DNA of 43,701 nucleotides from a virus (taxonomy: Duplodnaviria > Heunggongvirae > Uroviricota > Caudoviricetes). Both the position numbers and the translations under genes were made by a program. Location: positions 1 to 43,701 of the IMG/VR virus record IMGVR_UViG_2571042636_000008; one strand, 5' to 3'. The notes under the pieces are model-generated. The model was not told where the DNA came from. It saw only the letters and a list, made by a program, of their open reading frames with translations, and made no database searches. Below, in pieces: positions 6,970-31,014 of the stretch (positions are counted from its first letter, which is position 1; every line of letters begins with the position of its first letter).

Positions 6970-7404
6970 TTATTTTTGCAGGGATTTTATTGCGGAAGGG
7001 GTAAGCATAGAAGGGGGAAGGCTGCGAAGGTTATAAATGTAAGTCATATAGCACCCGCAATCTCTTGGGAGCGGTATGTCATTAAGGAATCCATCAACCC
7101 CGGGCTTTATCAATTTTTTCTTTATCGCCCATGATCCCTTAATTGTATAGATCCTCCCCTCTCGTTCTGCATGCTCTTTGCAGCCCCTTGATTTCCATAC
7201 AGCCGCAAGGGCATTGTTATCAACTGCATAACTGTGATCAGCCGCATTAAGTAGCGTTTTCGCATTTTTAACCGAAGAGTCTATGCTTACTGGTTGATAC
7301 TGTTTTAACTTCTTTTTTGTGGACTGTTTTGTATGCCAAATAAAAACGAACAGGCAACACGTAACTGCTAAGAACGCCCCAAGCAAAAAAGAGAAAAAAC
7401 TCAT
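6970..7404 (-). CDS. Membrane-anchored protein in the immunity region (rexB/sieB position); candidate superinfection exclusion or abortive infection factor
   Basis: 144 aa; N-terminal hydrophobic helix FFSFLLGAFLAVTCCLFVFIW; 20 bp downstream of cI on the same strand, followed by a terminator; more AT-rich than flanks. Confidence 0.6.
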   Translation of the reverse strand: MSFFSFLLGAFLAVTCCLFVFIWHTKQSTKKKLKQYQPVSIDSSVKNAKTLLNAADHSYAVDNNALAAVWKSRGCKEHAEREGRIYTIKGSWAIKKKLIKPGVDGFLNDIPLPRDCGCYMTYIYNLRSLPPSMLTPSAIKSLQK

Positions 7405-7423
7405 GATTACAATCCCTTAATGG

Positions 7424-8119
7424 TTAAAGTAAAACTGAATACCAGAAAACCCTTCCTATGATTTCAACATCTTGCTCCATTGCCTCTTCGTCCTCTCGGT
7501 TGAAGCTGCGTATCACAAGAATTCCACCTGGCTTACGGTATAACTGCTTTATCCGCTTTAGCTTTTCATCTCCGGCACCTGGTTGCGCGATAGCATATAG
7601 TTTTCCATCAATGATCCGTTTGTTATTGGTGTCTACTGCAACCGTTGTTCCATCTGGAATAACAGGCTCCATACTGTCTCCAGTGGCTGGGAAGCAGATA
7701 ACTCCAGAACCATCGCTGTTAGCGCCAACTCTTCGTAAAGTTGCTTTGGAGAACCTCAACTTAAAGCCATTGTGATCATCGCTTTGAATGCGACCATCCC
7801 CGCAGGCAAATTCGATATCTTTCAAAAAAGGCACTTCTACTTCGCCCTCACTTAGTGGGGTATTTTTGTCCCATGAATCGACTTGGGACCATTCTTTTTC
7901 GGGAGGAATTTCACTGGTCATTTCATGCTCCCCAGTTAAGAGCCAGCTAACTGAGCACTTTAAAGCTGCTGCCAACTCCGGCAAGTATCTTGGGCGCTTA
8001 GTCCTTCCGTCTTCGAGTTGCTGTATGGCCTGCTGAGAGGTTTTAGCTAGTGAAGCCAGCTCCGCTTGCGTCAATGATAGCTCCGCACGCCTAAGTTTTA
8101 CTCTGTCCGCAATATTCAT
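7424..8119 (-). CDS. cI: cI-type repressor (N-terminal HTH + C-terminal S24 LexA-like autopeptidase domain)
   Basis: HTH region [33 protein letters not shown]; S24 motifs GDSM and KLKRIK; start at ATG 8119 with GAGGTGGA RBS; the track's longer N-terminal extension rejected. Confidence 0.9.
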
Positions 8120-8789: not shown

Positions 8790-9644
8790 ATGGCAAATAC
8801 TGCCGAAGTAATCAATTTCCCTGTGCCTGTCGTGGCACTACAGGAGCTGCGCGTGGCAGATCTCGACGATGGGTTTACGCGCATCGCCAATGAGCTCCTT
8901 GAAGCTGTCATGCGTGCGGGTCTGTCGCAGCATCAGCTTTTGGTGTTCATGGCTGTCATGCGCAAAACATACGGCTTCAACAAGAAATCTGACTGGGTCA
9001 GTAACGAGCAGCTCTCGGAGCTGACCGGCATTCTCCCGCATAAGTGCTCAGCTGCAAAAAGCGTCCTGGTTAAGCGGGGGATATTAACTCAAACCGGTCG
9101 TGTTATCGGGATTAATAAAACGGTCAGCGAATGGTCATCTTTACCCGTAAAAGGTAAAGAAAAAAAACCTTACCTGAAAAAGGTAACATTACCCGAATCA
9201 GGTAAGAAAAGTTTACCCGAATCAGGTAACGCCTATTACCCGAATCAGGTAAACACAAAAGACAAACATACAAAAGACAATAAAGACAATATTAATAACC
9301 CCCCTAAATCCCCCCGGGCGGTTTCGTTCGATGCGTTAGCTGTTCAGTTGCCTGACTGGCTTTCTGCAGAAATCTGGTCGTCATGGGTGGCATATCGTCG
9401 CGACCTGAAAAAGCCGATCAAGTCTCAGCAGACGGTCACCCAGGCTATCAACCTGCTGGACCGCTGCAGACTGAACGGTTACGCGCCCGAAGAAATTATC
9501 AACCGCAGCATCGCCAATGGCTGGCAAGGCCTGTTTGAGCCAAATGGTGCCAAGCCTCAACCAAGTCAACAGGTGCGAGTTGCCGAAAATTTCGCAGGGA
9601 AGGATTACGGGCAGACTGAAATCCCATCATGGGCGAGGGACTGA
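8790..9644 (+). CDS. Replication initiator, lambda O-like
   Basis: 284 aa in O position; in-gene iteron array followed by an A-rich stretch as in lambda ori. Confidence 0.75.
   Translation: MANTAEVINFPVPVVALQELRVADLDDGFTRIANELLEAVMRAGLSQHQLLVFMAVMRKTYGFNKKSDWVSNEQLSELTGILPHKCSAAKSVLVKRGILTQTGRVIGINKTVSEWSSLPVKGKEKKPYLKKVTLPESGKKSLPESGNAYYPNQVNTKDKHTKDNKDNINNPPKSPRAVSFDALAVQLPDWLSAEIWSSWVAYRRDLKKPIKSQQTVTQAINLLDRCRLNGYAPEEIINRSIANGWQGLFEPNGAKPQPSQQVRVAENFAGKDYGQTEIPSWARD
9141..9252. repeat. Replication-origin iterons (five ~17-bp TTACCCGAATCAGGTAA-type repeats) inside the O gene
   Basis: Copies at 9141-9157, 9170-9186, 9189-9205, 9213-9229, 9236-9252, followed by an A-rich tract 9253-9300. 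Confidence 0.75.
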
Positions 9645-19265: not shown

Positions 19266-20042
19266 ATGGCAAAACCGGACTGGGAGGCCATCGAATCGGC
19301 ATACCTGGCCGGAGTCCTTAGTCTCCGTGATATAGGCGATAAATACGGTGTTACTGAAGGGGCTATCAGGAAGAGGGCTAAAAAGTTTGACTGGGTACGC
19401 AATAGCGGTACGCAGGTACGCAAAAATGGTACGCAAAGTGGTACGCAAAAGAGTAAGGCGCGTACCAGCGAAAAGCCTGCCAGCGCTGGCCGCACGCAAA
19501 AAAGTACGCAACCAAAAGCCGAGTCTCCACCAGATACGAAACCGATACGCGGGGTGCGTACCGATCCGCCGACCAACCCATTCCAACCCGGCAACCAGCA
19601 GGCGTTAAAGCATGGTGGTTACGCCCGGCGCCTTCTGCTCAAAGATGAGGTCATTGAAGACGCGAAAGCGTTGACACTCGAAGACGAATTATTTCGCCTT
19701 CGGGCTAACAACCTCGTCGCGGCAGAGAATATTGGCCGGTGGCTGACCAAGCTGGAAGATGCTGAAGGGGACCAGGAAAGAGAGGTGCTGATGGAAAATA
19801 TCAGCGCCGCCGAGAAGGCGATGATGCGCAATACCGTTCGTATTGAGTCCATCGTTGGGACGCTTGCGACGGTAGGCAAAATATTTGCTGATACAGACTA
19901 TCGCAAGGCTGCTACTGATAAGGTGTCGCTGGAGGCCGATCGTCTTCGCCGTGATGCAGGTATTGATGATGGCAACGGAGAGCGTGACCTCAATGACTTC
20001 TACTCTGACATCCAAACCGACGCTGAATCCGGTCCTGCGTAG
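19266..20042 (+). CDS. Terminase small subunit
   Basis: N-terminal HTH-like region LSLRDIGDKYGVTEGAIRKRAKKFDW; immediately upstream of TerL; contains tandem GGTACGCAA repeats. Confidence 0.6.
   Translation: MAKPDWEAIESAYLAGVLSLRDIGDKYGVTEGAIRKRAKKFDWVRNSGTQVRKNGTQSGTQKSKARTSEKPASAGRTQKSTQPKAESPPDTKPIRGVRTDPPTNPFQPGNQQALKHGGYARRLLLKDEVIEDAKALTLEDELFRLRANNLVAAENIGRWLTKLEDAEGDQEREVLMENISAAEKAMMRNTVRIESIVGTLATVGKIFADTDYRKAATDKVSLEADRLRRDAGIDDGNGERDLNDFYSDIQTDAESGPA
19394..19511. repeat. Seven tandem copies of (G)GTACGCA(A) inside terS, candidate pac/terminase recognition site
   Basis: Copies at 19394, 19407, 19415, 19428, 19440, 19492, 19503; encode GTQ tripeptide repeats. Confidence 0.6.
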
Positions 20043-21393
20043 CTTCTGGACGACGCAGGCGCGTAACAAAGTGCTTTATGGTGGCCGGTCATCGTCAAAA
20101 TCATGGGATGCCGCTGGCATCGCCATATTTCTGTCGAATAAATACAGCCTGCGCTTTTGCTGTGCACGTCAGATCCAGAACAAAATTGAAGAGTCGGTGT
20201 ATACCCTGCTCAAAATTCAGATTGACCGCTTTGGCCTGCGGCATCGTTTCCGCATTCTGAACAACAAAATCATTAACCGGGTGACCGGGTCTGAATTCGT
20301 GTTTTATGGGCTCTGGCGTAACATTGAAGAGATTAAGTCTCTGGAAGGTATCGACGTTCTGTGGCTTGAAGAGGCCCACGCGCTGACGGAATACCAGTGG
20401 AAGATACTGGAGCCTACCATCCGTAAAGAGGGCTCAGAGTGCTGGTTTATCTTTAACCCTGGACTGGTGACTGATTTCGTGTGGCGTAACTTTGTGGTCG
20501 ATCCGCCAGAAGATACGCTGATACGCAAAATCAACTACGATGAAAACCCATTTTTGTCCGACACCATGCTGAAGGTTATCGAGGCCGCTAAGCGTCGGGA
20601 TCCGGATGGGTTTAAGCATGTCTACGAAGGCGTGCCAGAGTCGGATGATGATGCGGCCATTATCAAGCTGTCATGGATTGAGGCGGCCGTTGATGCCCAT
20701 AAAGTCCTTAATTTCGAGCCGAGCGGGCGCAAGCGTATTGGCTTCGACGTTGCTGATAGCGGCGCCGATAAGTGCGCTAACGTCTATCGTCACGGCTCCG
20801 TCGTGTACTGGGCGGATGAGTGGAAGGCGAAAGAAGACGAATTGCTGAAGAGCTGCCAGCGTACGTATCAGGCAGCACTGGAGCGCGATGCTGATATCGT
20901 CTACGACTCAATCGGCGTTGGGGCATCTGCTGGCGCGAAATTCTCAGAAATTAATGAGGATCGTAAGCGCGAAAACATGAACGCATCCCGCATCAACTAT
21001 CAGCGTTTCAACGCTGGCGCTGGTGTGAATGAGCCGGACTACGAATACATTGGCATCCCGAACAAAGATTTTTTCGCCAACCTCAAAGCGCAAGCCTGGT
21101 GGTTGGTAGCGGATCGCTTCCGTAACACCTTCAACGCGGTAAAGAACGGCGAGCAGTACCCGGTAGATGAGTTGATTAGTATTGACTCATCCTGTCCGCT
21201 GCTGGAAAAGCTCAAGCTGGAACTTACCACGCCGCACCGTGATTTTGACAAAAACGGGCGCGTGATGGTGGAAAGCAAGAAAGACCTCGCCAAGCGTGAC
21301 GTACCATCGCCGAACGTGGCCGACGCGTTCATCATGGCGTTTGCTCCAACCGATACGGCAATGGATATCTGGGAAGCGCTGGGAAACAGCTAA
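19993..21393 (+). CDS. Terminase large subunit
   Basis: Walker A-like GGRSSSKS, nuclease-domain acidic motifs; start ATG 19993 chosen (alternatives 19885/19963), overlapping terS. Confidence 0.85.
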   Translation: MTSTLTSKPTLNPVLRSFWTTQARNKVLYGGRSSSKSWDAAGIAIFLSNKYSLRFCCARQIQNKIEESVYTLLKIQIDRFGLRHRFRILNNKIINRVTGSEFVFYGLWRNIEEIKSLEGIDVLWLEEAHALTEYQWKILEPTIRKEGSECWFIFNPGLVTDFVWRNFVVDPPEDTLIRKINYDENPFLSDTMLKVIEAAKRRDPDGFKHVYEGVPESDDDAAIIKLSWIEAAVDAHKVLNFEPSGRKRIGFDVADSGADKCANVYRHGSVVYWADEWKAKEDELLKSCQRTYQAALERDADIVYDSIGVGASAGAKFSEINEDRKRENMNASRINYQRFNAGAGVNEPDYEYIGIPNKDFFANLKAQAWWLVADRFRNTFNAVKNGEQYPVDELISIDSSCPLLEKLKLELTTPHRDFDKNGRVMVESKKDLAKRDVPSPNVADAFIMAFAPTDTAMDIWEALGNS

Positions 21394-21630: not shown

Positions 21631-23082
21631 ATGGCGAAGAAAACAGGACGAGTCGCCACGGCGGATTCGTACGATAACTTTGTTGCCCGTGTCGGAATGC
21701 AGCAGCCTAACCAGCATGCCGCATCAACCTACAGGGCGAACTATACCAGCCGCAACCGCCTGCTCATCGAGTGGGCTTATCGTTCCTCCTGGATTATTGG
21801 TGCCGCAGTCGATTCGAAAGCGGACGATATGACCAAAAAGGGCGTGCGGATCACCAGTGAGATTGACCCGAAACGTCGTGGCATTCTGGAATCACGGTTC
21901 GATGAGCTTCAGCTTTGGGATTGCATCAACGAGACGCTGAAATGGTCCCGGCTGTATGGCGGGGCGGTGGCGCTGATTCTGATTGAAGGTCAGGCACCGC
22001 TGACGCCGCTGGTGCTGGATAAGGTTGGCAAGGGCAGCTTTAAAGGTCTGGCTGTACTTGACCGCTGGATGATTAACCCACAGCTCACCAGGCGAATTAA
22101 GGCGCTTGGCCCCAATCTCGGCAAGCCAGAATTCTATGACATCGTGACGACGGCGCAGGGGCTTCCTGCGTGGACCGTTCACCACAGCCGACTGATTCGC
22201 ATGGATGGTGTGAAACTGCCCTACCAGCAGAAAATCACCGAAAACGAGTGGGGCATGTCCATTGTCGAGCGCATCTTCGATCGCCTGACTTCCTACGATA
22301 GCACCAGCGTTGGCGCCGCCCAGCTTGCCTACAAGGCACATCTGCGAACGGCAAAGATTAAAAAGCTGCGTGAAATTATCGCCATGGGCGGTAAACCATT
22401 CGAAGCGCTGGTTAAACAAATGGAGTTAGTTCGCCAGTACCAGACGAACGAGGGTATGTCCCTGTTTGATTCGGAGGACGAATTTGAAACACATTCCTAT
22501 TCTTTCGCGGGCCTGTCTGACCTGCTTAGCGAGTTTAAAGAGGATATCGCGGGTGCTGTTGGCATTCCTCTTGTCCGTCTGTTCCGCCAGTCACCGAAGG
22601 GTTTTTCAACCGGTGACGCTGACCTCGCGAACTACTACGACGACGTTGGAACGCTTCAGGAGCGAGATTTACGGCCTCACATCCGCCTGTTATTCGATGT
22701 ACTGCATCGCTCAGAGTTTGGCGAGCCGTTGCCGCAAGATTTCACCTTTGAGTTTAACCCCCTGTGGCAGATGAGCGACACCGATCGCTCCACGGTGGCA
22801 ACCAACACAACTACCGCTCTTGCAACCGCGGTGCGTGATTTGGGCATGTCGCCGGCTGCTGCTCTGACTGATTTGCGCGAGCTGTCTGACGTTACCGGCA
22901 TCGGTGCTTCAATTAGCGATGAGGATATCCAGAATGCGGCGAAACAGTGGCAGGAGACTGAATCTGAAACCAGCCCTCCGCCGCCGATCGGAGGTCCAGT
23001 ATCAGAAAAGCCTACTGGCGATAGTCGACCAGATAAATCAAATCGTCACGGGTTCCTACGATGGTTCACAGGCAAGCGCTGA
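21631..23082 (+). CDS. Portal protein
   Basis: 483-aa ORF after TerL with CCGGAG RBS; portal position and size; family (DUF1073-like) from memory. Confidence 0.75.
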   Translation: MAKKTGRVATADSYDNFVARVGMQQPNQHAASTYRANYTSRNRLLIEWAYRSSWIIGAAVDSKADDMTKKGVRITSEIDPKRRGILESRFDELQLWDCINETLKWSRLYGGAVALILIEGQAPLTPLVLDKVGKGSFKGLAVLDRWMINPQLTRRIKALGPNLGKPEFYDIVTTAQGLPAWTVHHSRLIRMDGVKLPYQQKITENEWGMSIVERIFDRLTSYDSTSVGAAQLAYKAHLRTAKIKKLREIIAMGGKPFEALVKQMELVRQYQTNEGMSLFDSEDEFETHSYSFAGLSDLLSEFKEDIAGAVGIPLVRLFRQSPKGFSTGDADLANYYDDVGTLQERDLRPHIRLLFDVLHRSEFGEPLPQDFTFEFNPLWQMSDTDRSTVATNTTTALATAVRDLGMSPAAALTDLRELSDVTGIGASISDEDIQNAAKQWQETESETSPPPPIGGPVSEKPTGDSRPDKSNRHGFLRWFTGKR

Positions 23083-28992: not shown

Positions 28993-30138
28993 ATGGCACA
29001 GGGCTTACCTGTTTCCAATGTCGTTAACGTTGACGTCATCATGTCACCGGTAGCGGCAACGGGGCGAAACTTCGGTGCGCTCCTCATTTTGGGAACCTCT
29101 ACCGTTATTCCGGTTACCGAGCGCATTCGCCAGTATTCGGCCATTGAAGATATCGGCGATGATTTTGGCGTTGACTCCCCGGAATACGAAGCAGCGACCA
29201 TCTTCTTTTCACAATCACCAAAACCCACGCTGGTCTATATCGGCCGTTGGGCGAAGACGCTGGCGGAAGAAGAGGCCGGGACGGTGGAAACCTTGCTACA
29301 GGCCGTTAATGCCTGCCTTCAGTATACCAACTGGTACGGGCTGGCAATTGCCGACAGCGCCGATCTGGTTGAGGCTGACGTGATTTCCGTTGCTGCTGCT
29401 ATTGAGGCATCCAGCTTAAGCCGCATTCTGGCCGTTACCACTGCTGATGTGAATGTGCTGGTGGCCGGAAATACCGACAATATCGGCTACAAACTGAAAG
29501 CCGCTGGCTATGCCCGCACATTCTGGCAGTACAGTTCCAGCAGCAAATACGCCGCTATCTCGGCCTTTGGCCGCGCATTCACGGTGAATTTCACCGGCAG
29601 CAATACCACGATCACACTGAAGTTTAAAACCGAGCCTGGTATTACCTACGAGACGCTGACAACCGCACAGGCCGCAGCCATTGATGCCATTAACGGTAAC
29701 GTCTACGTCTACTACGCCAACGATACGGCAATTATCCAGCAGGGTGTGATGGCGAACGGTGATTTCTTTGATGAGCGGCATGGCCTGGACTGGCTGCAGA
29801 ACTACGTTCAGACCAATCTCTATAACCTGCTTTACACCTCGGCCACCAAAATCCCGCAGACCGACGCAGGCGTAACCCGGTTAATGACCAACGTCGAAGC
29901 CTCACTGGATCAGGCGGTAAATAACGGCCTCATTGCTCCGGGTGTCTGGAACGGTGGCCCGATTGGCCAGATTGAATCCGGGGATACCCTGACCAAGGGT
30001 TACTACGTCTACGCCGACGCGGTAGCTAACCAGGCTCAATCCGACAGGGAAGCGCGTAAGTCGCCGGTAATTCAGGCGGCGATCAAGCTGGCTGGCGCTA
30101 TTCATTATGGCGACGTGCAGATCAATGTGGTGCGATAA
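28993..30138 (+). CDS. Tail sheath protein (DUF3383-like)
   Basis: 381 aa; followed by tube, chaperone and tape measure; family from memory. Confidence 0.6.
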
Positions 30139-30147
30139 GGAGCGACC

Positions 30148-30591
30148 ATGAGCGGAACCTATAGTTTTATTGACGTCTCGGCATCCCTGACGGGCCCAAC
30201 CGGCAGTATCGATCTGGGCTGCGGCTCGGCGAACTCCGAAGAAGGTATTACGGTTGCGATGACCGAGGCAAAAAACACCATGACCGTCGGCGCCGATGGT
30301 GAGGTGATGCACAGCCTGCACGCCGGTAAGAGCGGCACTATCACGGTAACTTTGCTGAAAACCTCCCCGGTAAACAAAAAGCTCTCGCTGATGTACAACG
30401 CACAGAGCCTGTCCTCGGCGACGTGGGGCAATAACGTCATCGTCATTCGCAACAAAGTATCAGGTGATACCACTACAGCGCGTTCTTGTGCTTTCCAGAA
30501 GCAACCCGATCACGCTAACGCCAAAGTCGGCAATACGGTTTCCTGGGTCTTTGACTGCGGCAAGATTGATCAGCTGCTTGGGGAGTTTTAA
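30148..30591 (+). CDS. Tail tube protein (DUF3277-like)
   Basis: 147 aa with AAGGAG RBS, between sheath and chaperone. Confidence 0.6.
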   Translation: MSGTYSFIDVSASLTGPTGSIDLGCGSANSEEGITVAMTEAKNTMTVGADGEVMHSLHAGKSGTITVTLLKTSPVNKKLSLMYNAQSLSSATWGNNVIVIRNKVSGDTTTARSCAFQKQPDHANAKVGNTVSWVFDCGKIDQLLGEF

Positions 30592-30594
30592 CGG

Positions 30595-31014
30595 ATGGAA
30601 TTTGAAATCAAAGGGGTTAATTACCGAACCGCCAAACTTGACGTATTCCAGCAACTGAAGGTCAGCCGTAAGCTGCTGCCGGTGCTGGCCGGGCTCGTTA
30701 GTGAATTTTCCACGCTGAAAGCGCAGGCCGCTGCGGGTAACTCTGGTGCAGTGCTGGAAAGCGTACTGCCGAAAATTGCCGATACGCTGGCCGCGCTGCC
30801 GGATGAGGACGTTAACGCGGTGATTCATCCGTGCCTGGGCGTTGTTATGCGCCAGCATGAAAAAGGGTGGGTGAAAATTTTCGATCAGGGCGCGCTGATG
30901 TTCGACGATATCGACCTGTTCACGATGCTGCAGTTGGTGGCGCGGGTGGTCGCCGACAGCCTGGGAAATTTTTTGAAAGAACTCCCCGGCAGCGGGACGC
31001 CTACCCAGCCATAG
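30595..31014 (+). CDS. Tail assembly chaperone (short, zero-frame product)
   Basis: 139-aa ORF immediately upstream of tape measure gene. Confidence 0.6.
   Translation: MEFEIKGVNYRTAKLDVFQQLKVSRKLLPVLAGLVSEFSTLKAQAAAGNSGAVLESVLPKIADTLAALPDEDVNAVIHPCLGVVMRQHEKGWVKIFDQGALMFDDIDLFTMLQLVARVVADSLGNFLKELPGSGTPTQP

Follow-up and report, generated by a model that had tools for sequence, protein, structure and literature searches.

The phage genome analyzed here (IMG/VR virus record IMGVR_UViG_2571042636_000008, Caudoviricetes; its whole stretch of 43,701 nt is called the window) contains, within the gene of its small terminase subunit (terS), a dense array of the short word GTACGCA. We propose that this array probably consists of cis-acting binding sites for the helix-turn-helix (HTH) domain of the gene's own product, TerS, and that it forms the recognition part of a pac site. 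The interpretation is based on the clustering of the word, on selection that acts on the DNA, on co-variation of the word with the class of the HTH domain, and on the persistence of the array where there is no reading frame. An earlier note, made from the window's sequence alone, had already suggested a terminase recognition element of the pac type, and DNA-level conservation, co-occurrence with the HTH and arrays without a terS frame lend support to that suggestion.

A motif scan that allows up to two mismatches finds ten copies of the nonamer GGTACGCAA in terS, eight direct and two inverted (Table 1). The earlier note had described seven tandem repeats at 19394-19511; seven plus-strand copies are indeed located there, but they are interspersed instead of being arranged head-to-tail (spacings of 8-51 nt), and the count overlooked three further copies, namely both inverted ones and a degenerate direct one. 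From start to start, the direct copies are 13, 8, 13, 12, 51, 12 and 30 nt apart, and Tandem Repeats Finder reports only short periods (8, 12 and 21) for the array. The copy at 19440 and the first inverted copy together form a 7 bp inverted repeat, GGTACGC-N13-GCGTACC. Of the two GATACG half-copies in the distal part of the module, one was scored by the scan (19533-19541) and the other was read by eye.

The exact word, GTACGCA or TGCGTAC, occurs seven times in the window, and all seven occurrences fall within 167 nt (19395-19561) inside terS, as is expected of a pac-type site, which should be unique and located in or beside this gene. By a rough estimate, such clustering of all exact words has a chance probability of ~2e-14. 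The array is also the largest 7-mer cluster of the window, with seven copies in 170 nt compared to a maximum of 3-5 in 200 block shuffles; the repeats, whose density the earlier note had called unusual for coding sequence, are thus far beyond chance.

Table 1. Repeat copies, groups of copies and associated genes and protein regions (positions in the window).
Feature	Position	Strand	Basis or details
Exact copies of GGTACGCAA	19394-19402, 19415-19423, 19428-19436, 19440-19448	+	motif scan
One-mismatch copy GGTACGCAG	19407-19415	+	motif scan
Inverted copy GCGCGTACC	19458-19466	-	motif scan
Two-mismatch copy CGCACGCAA	19491-19499	+	motif scan
One-mismatch copy AGTACGCAA	19503-19511	+	motif scan
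Degenerate direct copy GATACGAAA, two mismatches	19533-19541	+	motif scan
Inverted copy GTGCGTACC	19554-19562	-	motif scan; beyond the range given in the earlier note
Left cluster, five direct GGTACGCA(A) copies	19394-19448	+	starts 19394, 19407, 19415, 19428, 19440; spacings 13, 8, 13, 12 nt
Right pair of direct copies, 12 nt apart	19491-19511	+	CGCACGCAA at 19491, AGTACGCAA at 19503
Distal part of module	19528-19562		CCAGATACGAAACCGATACGCGG with two GATACG half-copies, then the terminal inverted GTGCGTACC
terS, small terminase subunit	19266-20042	+	258 aa/codons; PHROG_370, full-length match
Predicted N-terminal three-helix HTH domain, class A	19266-19400 (codons 1-45)	+	AlphaFold2 model and weak Pfam matches
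Disordered linker of TerS (predicted), bearing most of the array	19404-19571 (codons 47-102)	+	AlphaFold2
terL, large terminase (Terminase_3 / PBSX family)	20011-21393	+	Pfam Terminase_3, E = 5e-40

The repeats had also been thought to encode GTQ. This applies to three copies; the other direct copies yield RTQ, STQ, VRN and VRK, and the inverted ones ART and VRT, so that two frames and both strands are involved. Within the left cluster the copies alternate between the two frames, giving VRN, GTQ, VRK, GTQ and GTQ in succession. Tested as a protein tandem repeat (GTQ)n, which implies one frame and one peptide unit, the array fails because of the two frames and both strands.

The comparison among relatives that the earlier note had recommended was made within family 1, i.e. 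the genes with the window's TerS body: 67 unique sequences from the phage database and IMG/VR, including the gene of an Aeromonas phage at 66% nucleotide identity. Each of them possesses between four and nine exact copies in nt 130-300 of the gene, compared to 0-3 in the ~4.3 kb flank of each locus. The repeat number thus varies, which agrees with half of the refuting condition named in the earlier note ('repeats variable and dispensable'), but no family-1 gene has fewer than four copies. Among close relatives the number shifts by whole units, with an extra KSTQ in one of them and a version shorter by 24 nt in a group at 93% identity, and the right-hand direct copies (19491-19511 region) number from one to three. 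The 8+13 nt spacing core of the left cluster is shared by Aeromonas phage pAEv1818 and the Serratia arrays without a reading frame; the inverted copy directly after the direct cluster is kept in both of these and also in family 2, introduced below. Codon usage in the family-1 linker is biased towards the word: T-Q is coded ACG-CA(A/G) in 261 of 278 cases, whereas ACG accounts for only 24% of the threonine codons elsewhere in the same genes; V-R is coded GTACGC (122) or GTGCGT (61), and GTA makes up 16% of the valine codons elsewhere in these genes.

Family 2 includes the phages SEN34, HK639, GF-2, Edno5 and KO-TP1 as well as IMG/VR relatives (70 unique sequences, with identities as low as 69%). 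What family 2 has in common with the window is limited to the N-terminal 45 residues; homology detected by blastn covers nt 1-116 and ends before the arrays, and the remainder of the protein matches another PHROG (PHROG_1206). The word is nevertheless present, as GTACGC at nt 175, 190 and 202 and as GCGTAC at nt 230, within the peptide LVRKQEVRKTVR...ERVL. All eight motif codons (GTA-CGC three times, CGC-GTA once) are invariant in the 70 sequences, compared to three of 73 columns with at least fourfold degeneracy and a conserved amino acid (Fisher p = 5e-9); the inverted copy CGC-GTA, codons 77-78, is found in 70 of 70. A fifth V-R at codons 90-91 serves as an internal control, and here the valine codon drifts among GTA, GTT, GTC and GTG. 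Because the word occurs in two frames and both orientations and its synonymous codons are frozen, selection acts on the DNA word rather than on the peptide; the linker peptide (GTQ, VRK etc.) appears to be a by-product of the word.

As a side observation, two terS copies with disrupted frames retain GTACGCA words at the expected positions: that of IMGVR_UViG_2875262337_000001, in which the frame shifts by 1 nt beyond the fifth copy, and that of a Symbiopectobacterium metagenome-assembled genome, which contains several stops. Both could be assembly errors or pseudogenes.

These data bear directly on the explanation that the segment is simply a low-complexity linker (GTQ/KSTQ) expanded by replication slippage, with passive DNA repetition and no role in cis. 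It is true that the segment codes for a predicted disordered linker rich in K, Q, T and S, that close relatives differ by whole units in copy number, and that Tandem Repeats Finder detects short periods of 8, 12 and 21 nt. Slippage does not account, however, for a word that is found in two frames and inverted while encoding five different peptides, for synonymous positions that are frozen within the word when neighboring codons drift, for the invariant placement of the family-2 word in a non-repetitive peptide, or for an array that persists without a reading frame in Serratia. We therefore regard this explanation as extremely improbable.

A further comparison is between the word and the HTH domain that precedes it. 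HTH domains of class A (EGAIRK[RKQ]AK) are combined with GTACGCA arrays on three unrelated TerS bodies, namely the PHROG_370 type (window), the PHROG_1206 type (SEN34/HK639) and Pfam Terminase_2, the last with a class A-like HTH in Serratia montpellierensis (Pfam E = 3e-25). Counted in nt 91-390 of the gene, class A (n = 133) has the word GTACGCA with a mean of 5.26 copies, the AKRYIK class (n = 67) TGCGAAT with 4.40, the ARRYIK class (n = 6) TGCGCAA with 4.33, and the ARTRIK class of Shiga-toxin (Stx) phages (n = 15) GATCAT with 4.07. Cross-occurrence of words between classes is near zero; class A arrays, for instance, have a mean GATCAT count of 0.12.

Individual cases illustrate the rule. 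Klebsiella phage RothC (PP934563.1, terS 455-1195) shares its TerS body with phage Chronis but not its N-terminal domain (GLNYSSAKRYIK in RothC); the RothC terS contains no GTACGCA, and the linker DNA (gene nt 144-190) has TGCGAAT instead, often as TGCGAATTCGCA. In most of 71 unique relatives of the RothC HTH, the most frequently repeated 7-mer is TGCGAAT, present in 4-8 copies (2-3 in a subgroup where TGCGAAA is more abundant). Their TerS bodies include a Terminase_2 type of 347 aa, and ARRYIK variants of the HTH carry TGCGCAA/TGCGCAG. The TerS body of Shiga-toxin phages of the VT2-Sakai/933W type is 38% identical to that of the window, and the HTH contains NTARTRIK. Their terS genes possess a 12 bp unit, (A)TCGATCATGAA, repeated four or five times and translated as IDHEIDHKTDHEIDH (gene nt 137-190 in VT2-Sakai, AP000422.1, terS 30131-30937); these units contain GATCAT, begin directly behind the HTH, where class A genes have the GTACGCA array, and are followed by two copies of TGCGCAA. 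The linker peptide is wholly different between HTH classes (GTQVRK, ANSQKK, IDHEIDH). By these comparisons, the word tracks the HTH and not the TerS body.

Fusions to Terminase_2 were observed with more than one HTH class. The 336 aa TerS of Serratia montpellierensis (NZ_VOSN01000022.1; locus L408, 3831-4841) has the HTH GISEAAIRKRAKK and a GTACGCA array (four direct copies, one inverted) in front of a complete Terminase_2 domain, and at a further locus (L245) Terminase_2 is preceded by a class B HTH and its TGCGAAT array in a similar fusion. The existence of both class A and class B fusions suggests that an HTH and its own array move as a module.

The 16-mer GTACGCAGGTACGCAA was scanned for in one genome per species (596 gigabases, with about 280 chance matches expected). 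Most of the matches are chance matches in unrelated phyla, and two of them, in an actinobacterium and a myxobacterium, were set aside as simple (GTACGCAG)n microsatellites. The scan also retrieved 11 class A terS genes from Raoultella, Enterobacter, Edwardsiella, Rahnella, Serratia, Rosenbergiella and others. In Serratia sp. Ag1 and sp. H1w, by contrast, the array resides in non-coding DNA without terS: there is no upstream HTH, the frames are interrupted and the C-terminal body is missing. Homology between this array of ~170 bp (7300-7560 of locus L376 in sp. Ag1) and terS is confined to the stretch between the first GGTACGCA and a point shortly after the last TGCGTACC, corresponding to window 19394 to ~19566, and the flanks are unrelated to terS. 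In a four-sequence alignment of the array most invariant columns are motif positions, and the distal stretch 19528-19562 is also kept in the Serratia copies without a reading frame.

The Serratia hosts of the array are integrated elements of ~15-17 kb (IMG/VR contigs of 17,290 and 15,144 nt). They encode a repressor, a Toprim-DUF927 primase, a tyrosine integrase, Rha-like and Bro-N proteins and a few tail/baseplate-like proteins; terminase, portal and capsid genes are absent from the ~14 kb read of each element. Iteron-like TGAACC and GTTTCCAC repeats flank the array. We consider these elements candidate satellites, or else defective elements, that would have kept a mimic of a packaging signal. 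In either case, the elements demonstrate maintenance of the array at the DNA level, and they define a module of ~170 bp. Plasmids were likewise considered as carriers of pac mimics, but a plasmid search found only Klebsiella records of 37-42 kb, which were taken as circular phage genomes with the array inside an annotated open reading frame and not as mimics.

What has to be weighed at this point is whether the array might act in ways other than packaging. It could comprise binding sites for another protein, such as a late-gene regulator or host factor, or sites at which TerS regulates terS-terL expression. Dense conserved short words with an inverted pair resemble an operator, the array lies at the start of the late structural operon, and its proposed link to cleavage is based on indirect evidence. 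Yet the word co-varies with the HTH class despite differing upstream neighbors (spanin genes, bor, rha, an HNH gene or the genome end), and if a regulator were encoded elsewhere, each swap of the 45-codon HTH would have to include it; moreover, the Serratia elements keep the array although there is no terS or terL to regulate in the sequence read. A role of this kind seems unlikely to us. Still less credible is an element at the RNA level, in which copies pair in the terS mRNA (GGUACGC-N13-GCGUACC) and control translation, stability or the terS:terL ratio. The perfect 7 bp inverted repeat (19440-19466) keeps its position in pAEv1818, family 2 and the Serratia arrays; but most copies are direct and have no partner, and both arms are invariant, hence no compensatory change backs the pairing. 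Neither the link to the HTH class nor the retention of the array in the non-coding DNA of the Serratia islands would be explained, and we judge this very unlikely.

The interpretation as a TerS recognition site also agrees with the layout of the protein. An AlphaFold2 model of TerS has helices at residues 6-15, 20-27 and 31-40 (predicted local distance difference test, pLDDT, 76-84), no secondary structure at residues 47-102 (pLDDT <50, about 30) and a long helical hairpin at residues 119-202. The model is based on a shallow alignment of 31 sequences at 91-100% identity and its confidence is low overall (mean pLDDT 57.5), but it is useful for the N-terminal helices and the disordered linker. 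Sub-threshold Pfam matches to HTH families (Sigma70_r4, HTH_AsnC-type, HTH_28) fall on residues 12-42, and we propose EGAIRKRAKK as the recognition helix of the class A HTH. The array, terS nt 129-297, coincides almost exactly with the linker codons. As the linker peptide differs completely between HTH classes, this fits with a peptide that is a by-product of DNA sites.

According to the model that we propose for packaging, TerS oligomers would present several HTH domains, and these would engage the cluster of five direct GGTACGCA(A) copies as well as the inverted copy next in line and those farther away, with spacings of about one helical turn. The resulting nucleoprotein complex of ~170 bp (~19394-19562) would mark phage concatemers and recruit TerL (Terminase_3), and the first cut would be made nearby. 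Headful packaging would then proceed toward terL and the portal gene, in keeping with the orientation of the direct copies. The sites would be accommodated in the codons of a disordered linker, where the protein would tolerate almost any sequence. We infer TerS binding, nearby cleavage, packaging direction and headful mode alike.

Several observations weigh against this interpretation. In the literature on the window phage and its relatives we found no virion-end mapping, PhageTerm result or coverage peak, and in the SEN34 paper the packaging sequences were not identified (PMC5261728). The isolated DNA-binding domain of the SF6/SPP1 TerS binds pac weakly and has no preference for the box repeats (PMC4737164), thus repeats in a pac region are by themselves no proof of specific recognition. 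The HTH assignment is based on a model of medium confidence and sub-threshold Pfam matches, and a Foldseek search of the TerS model against PDB gave no match at E <= 0.001 and no TerS structure, only generic helical bundles. Pantoea phage PdC23 (NC_071008.1, terS 44017-44715) has an HTH that resembles class A (GVTEGAIRKQAK), but its gene contains no GTACGCA in nt 91-390 and no obvious array; an HNH endonuclease gene is located two genes upstream, and this exception to the rule possibly reflects a different packaging mode. Finally, the co-variation of HTH and word could in part be co-inheritance of adjacent sequence.

Taken to its extreme, the last point would mean that the array is a historical accident, i.e. 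a stretch prone to duplication or recombination that was inherited with the adjacent HTH DNA and has no present function. With the array only 10-60 codons away from the HTH, linkage alone would yield some co-occurrence, and PdC23 demonstrates that a similar HTH can exist without an array. On the other hand, the DNA homology between families 1 and 2 stops before the arrays, yet the word is present in both, although its number, spacing and frames are not the same in the two; across 70 sequences with a divergence of up to 31% it does not vary at all; and there are at least four HTH classes, each with its own word. An accident of this sort is, in our opinion, highly improbable, and the interpretation of the array as a pac-type recognition site seems well supported by the comparative evidence.

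Among known systems, the closest analogue in architecture is the pac site of P1, which is likewise a cis site in the small-terminase gene (pacA) with several copies of a short word. Its hexamers are arranged as four plus three copies that flank the cleavage region within ~160 bp, compared to five plus two direct copies and additional inverted copies in ~170 bp of the window. Cleavage of P1 pac depends on Dam methylation. The P1 hexamer TGATCA/G contains GATC, whereas GGTACGCAA does not, so the window's word offers no Dam site of the P1 type; the GATCAT repeats of the Stx-phage relatives are closer to P1 in sequence than the window's word. In total, P1 pac has seven hexanucleotide repeats (PMC11260489).

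The pac of SPP1 consists of three sets of direct repeats that span the start of the TerS gene (PMC4737164). In SPP1/SF6 (pacL, pacC, pacR; box a, b, c) the direct repeats thus overlap the 5' part of the gene, as they do here, and TerS displays an N-terminal HTH on an oligomer (PMC4737164). The boxes are poorly conserved between SF6 and SPP1, whereas the window's word stays constant even in distant relatives and varies together with the HTH class. This invariance and co-variation argue for base-specific recognition, as far as can be told from sequence comparison.

In lambda, the elements R1-R3 of cosB are bound by gpNu1, a TerS with a winged HTH, beside the terminase cleavage site. These R sites are 16 bp long, lie mostly upstream of Nu1, need bending by IHF and serve cos (sticky-end) packaging; the window's sites, in contrast, measure 8-9 bp and lie inside the coding region, and its TerL is related to Sf6-type terminases. 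The TerS of P22 belongs to a different fold family, and its pac, one asymmetric sequence of 22 bp, coincides with codons for a structured part of the protein instead of forming an array in a linker. P22 resembles the window in that the site is part of the TerS gene, hence gene and target are inherited as a unit; its pac lies within gene 3, and the phage is a headful packager (PMC9611059). As to the Serratia elements, PLE carries a short copy of the pac of ICP1, which it needs for its own transduction (bioRxiv 10.1101/2024.04.22.590561). As candidate mimics, the arrays without terS resemble this case; unlike the satellites PLE, SaPI and P4 (cos), the Serratia elements encode a few tail/baseplate proteins.

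The genomic context of the array is that of a packaging module. TerS has a full-length match to PHROG_370 'terminase small subunit' (E = 2e-99), whereas Pfam yields no family above threshold and only weak sub-threshold HTH matches. A search for protein homologues gave near-identical proteins only and no added diversity, and a sequence search of PDB returned nothing relevant. Wanchaivirus PDP110P2 (Hendrixvirinae) and an E. coli SCU-308 prophage have a terS that is 100% identical to the window's, and the identity is 93-99% for several Klebsiella phages; matches to the terS family are found in prophages of 205 out of 5,426 complete E. coli genomes and in many Klebsiella phages. The late structural operon begins with terS, which is followed by an overlapping Terminase_3 terL gene and then by a Phage_portal_3 gene at 21631-23082. 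TerL is 35.7% identical over 97% of its length to that of the Sf6-like phage Sf101, and 34% to that of APSE-2; terminases of the Sf6 type (Sf101, APSE-2) are headful packagers. The start of terL is uncertain: the reading frame contains no stop from 19885 onward, which allows an overlap of up to 158 nt with the 3' end of terS, and besides the ATG at 20011 used here, relatives are annotated at the equivalents of 19954 (GZ7) and 19993 (ST16-OXA48phi5.2).

Candidates for positional evidence on packaging were set aside. A coverage peak in terS of the E. coli LF82 prophage Gally does not apply, since the Gally TerS (140 aa) has neither a class A HTH nor an array; the record starts of related phages (terS ATG, terL start, 29-450 nt upstream) were not used as physical ends because they resemble annotation conventions. 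Elsewhere in the window, the second strongest cluster of short repeats is located at 9141-9291, with TTACCCG, TCAGGTA and CAGGTAA up to four times in 170 nt. At 9188-9252, Tandem Repeats Finder detects 2.8 copies of a 23 nt unit, and AAAGACA repeats come next (9251-9291). These repeats may be iterons or operators.

A recognition site built of repeats inside terS is of a kind that is already known, and the array would be a newly found instance of it; in the literature, including the Wanchaivirus papers and the Mulock genome note, we found no description of GGTACGCA in connection with a terminase or of pac sites for this phage group. How TerS of pac-type terminases recognizes DNA was still considered unclear in a 2022 review (PMC9611059), and weak or non-specific binding has been reported for the TerS of P22, Sf6, SF6 and SPP1 (PMC9611059, PMC4737164). 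The array represents a tractable case, with a short invariant word in 4-9 copies, natural variants of both HTH and word, and a linker that is open to synonymous recoding.

More tentatively, we suggest a broader hypothesis, which we consider about as easily wrong as right, if not slightly more so: a portable 'packaging specificity cassette' could be distributed across an enterobacterial TerS superfamily. It would consist of an HTH of ~45 residues and an array of its own 7-8 bp sites in the codons of a disordered linker and would move between unrelated TerS bodies, each HTH subtype having its own word (GTACGCA, TGCGAAT, TGCGCAA, GATCAT), and the bare array would have been captured by satellite-like islands to hijack helper terminases. 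The superfamily may span Wanchaivirus-like prophages of Klebsiella and E. coli, SEN34/HK639-like phages and Shiga-toxin phages, the last with a different-word relative of the terS family. If this hypothesis is true, it would provide a pac-type system with clear base-specific recognition by TerS, and pac sites as well as packaging compatibility would become predictable from sequence. Knowledge of the pac signal would help to predict the direction and reach of lateral and generalized transduction in clinical Enterobacteriaceae, to design packageable cargo for phage-based delivery, and to recognize satellites that copy the signal.

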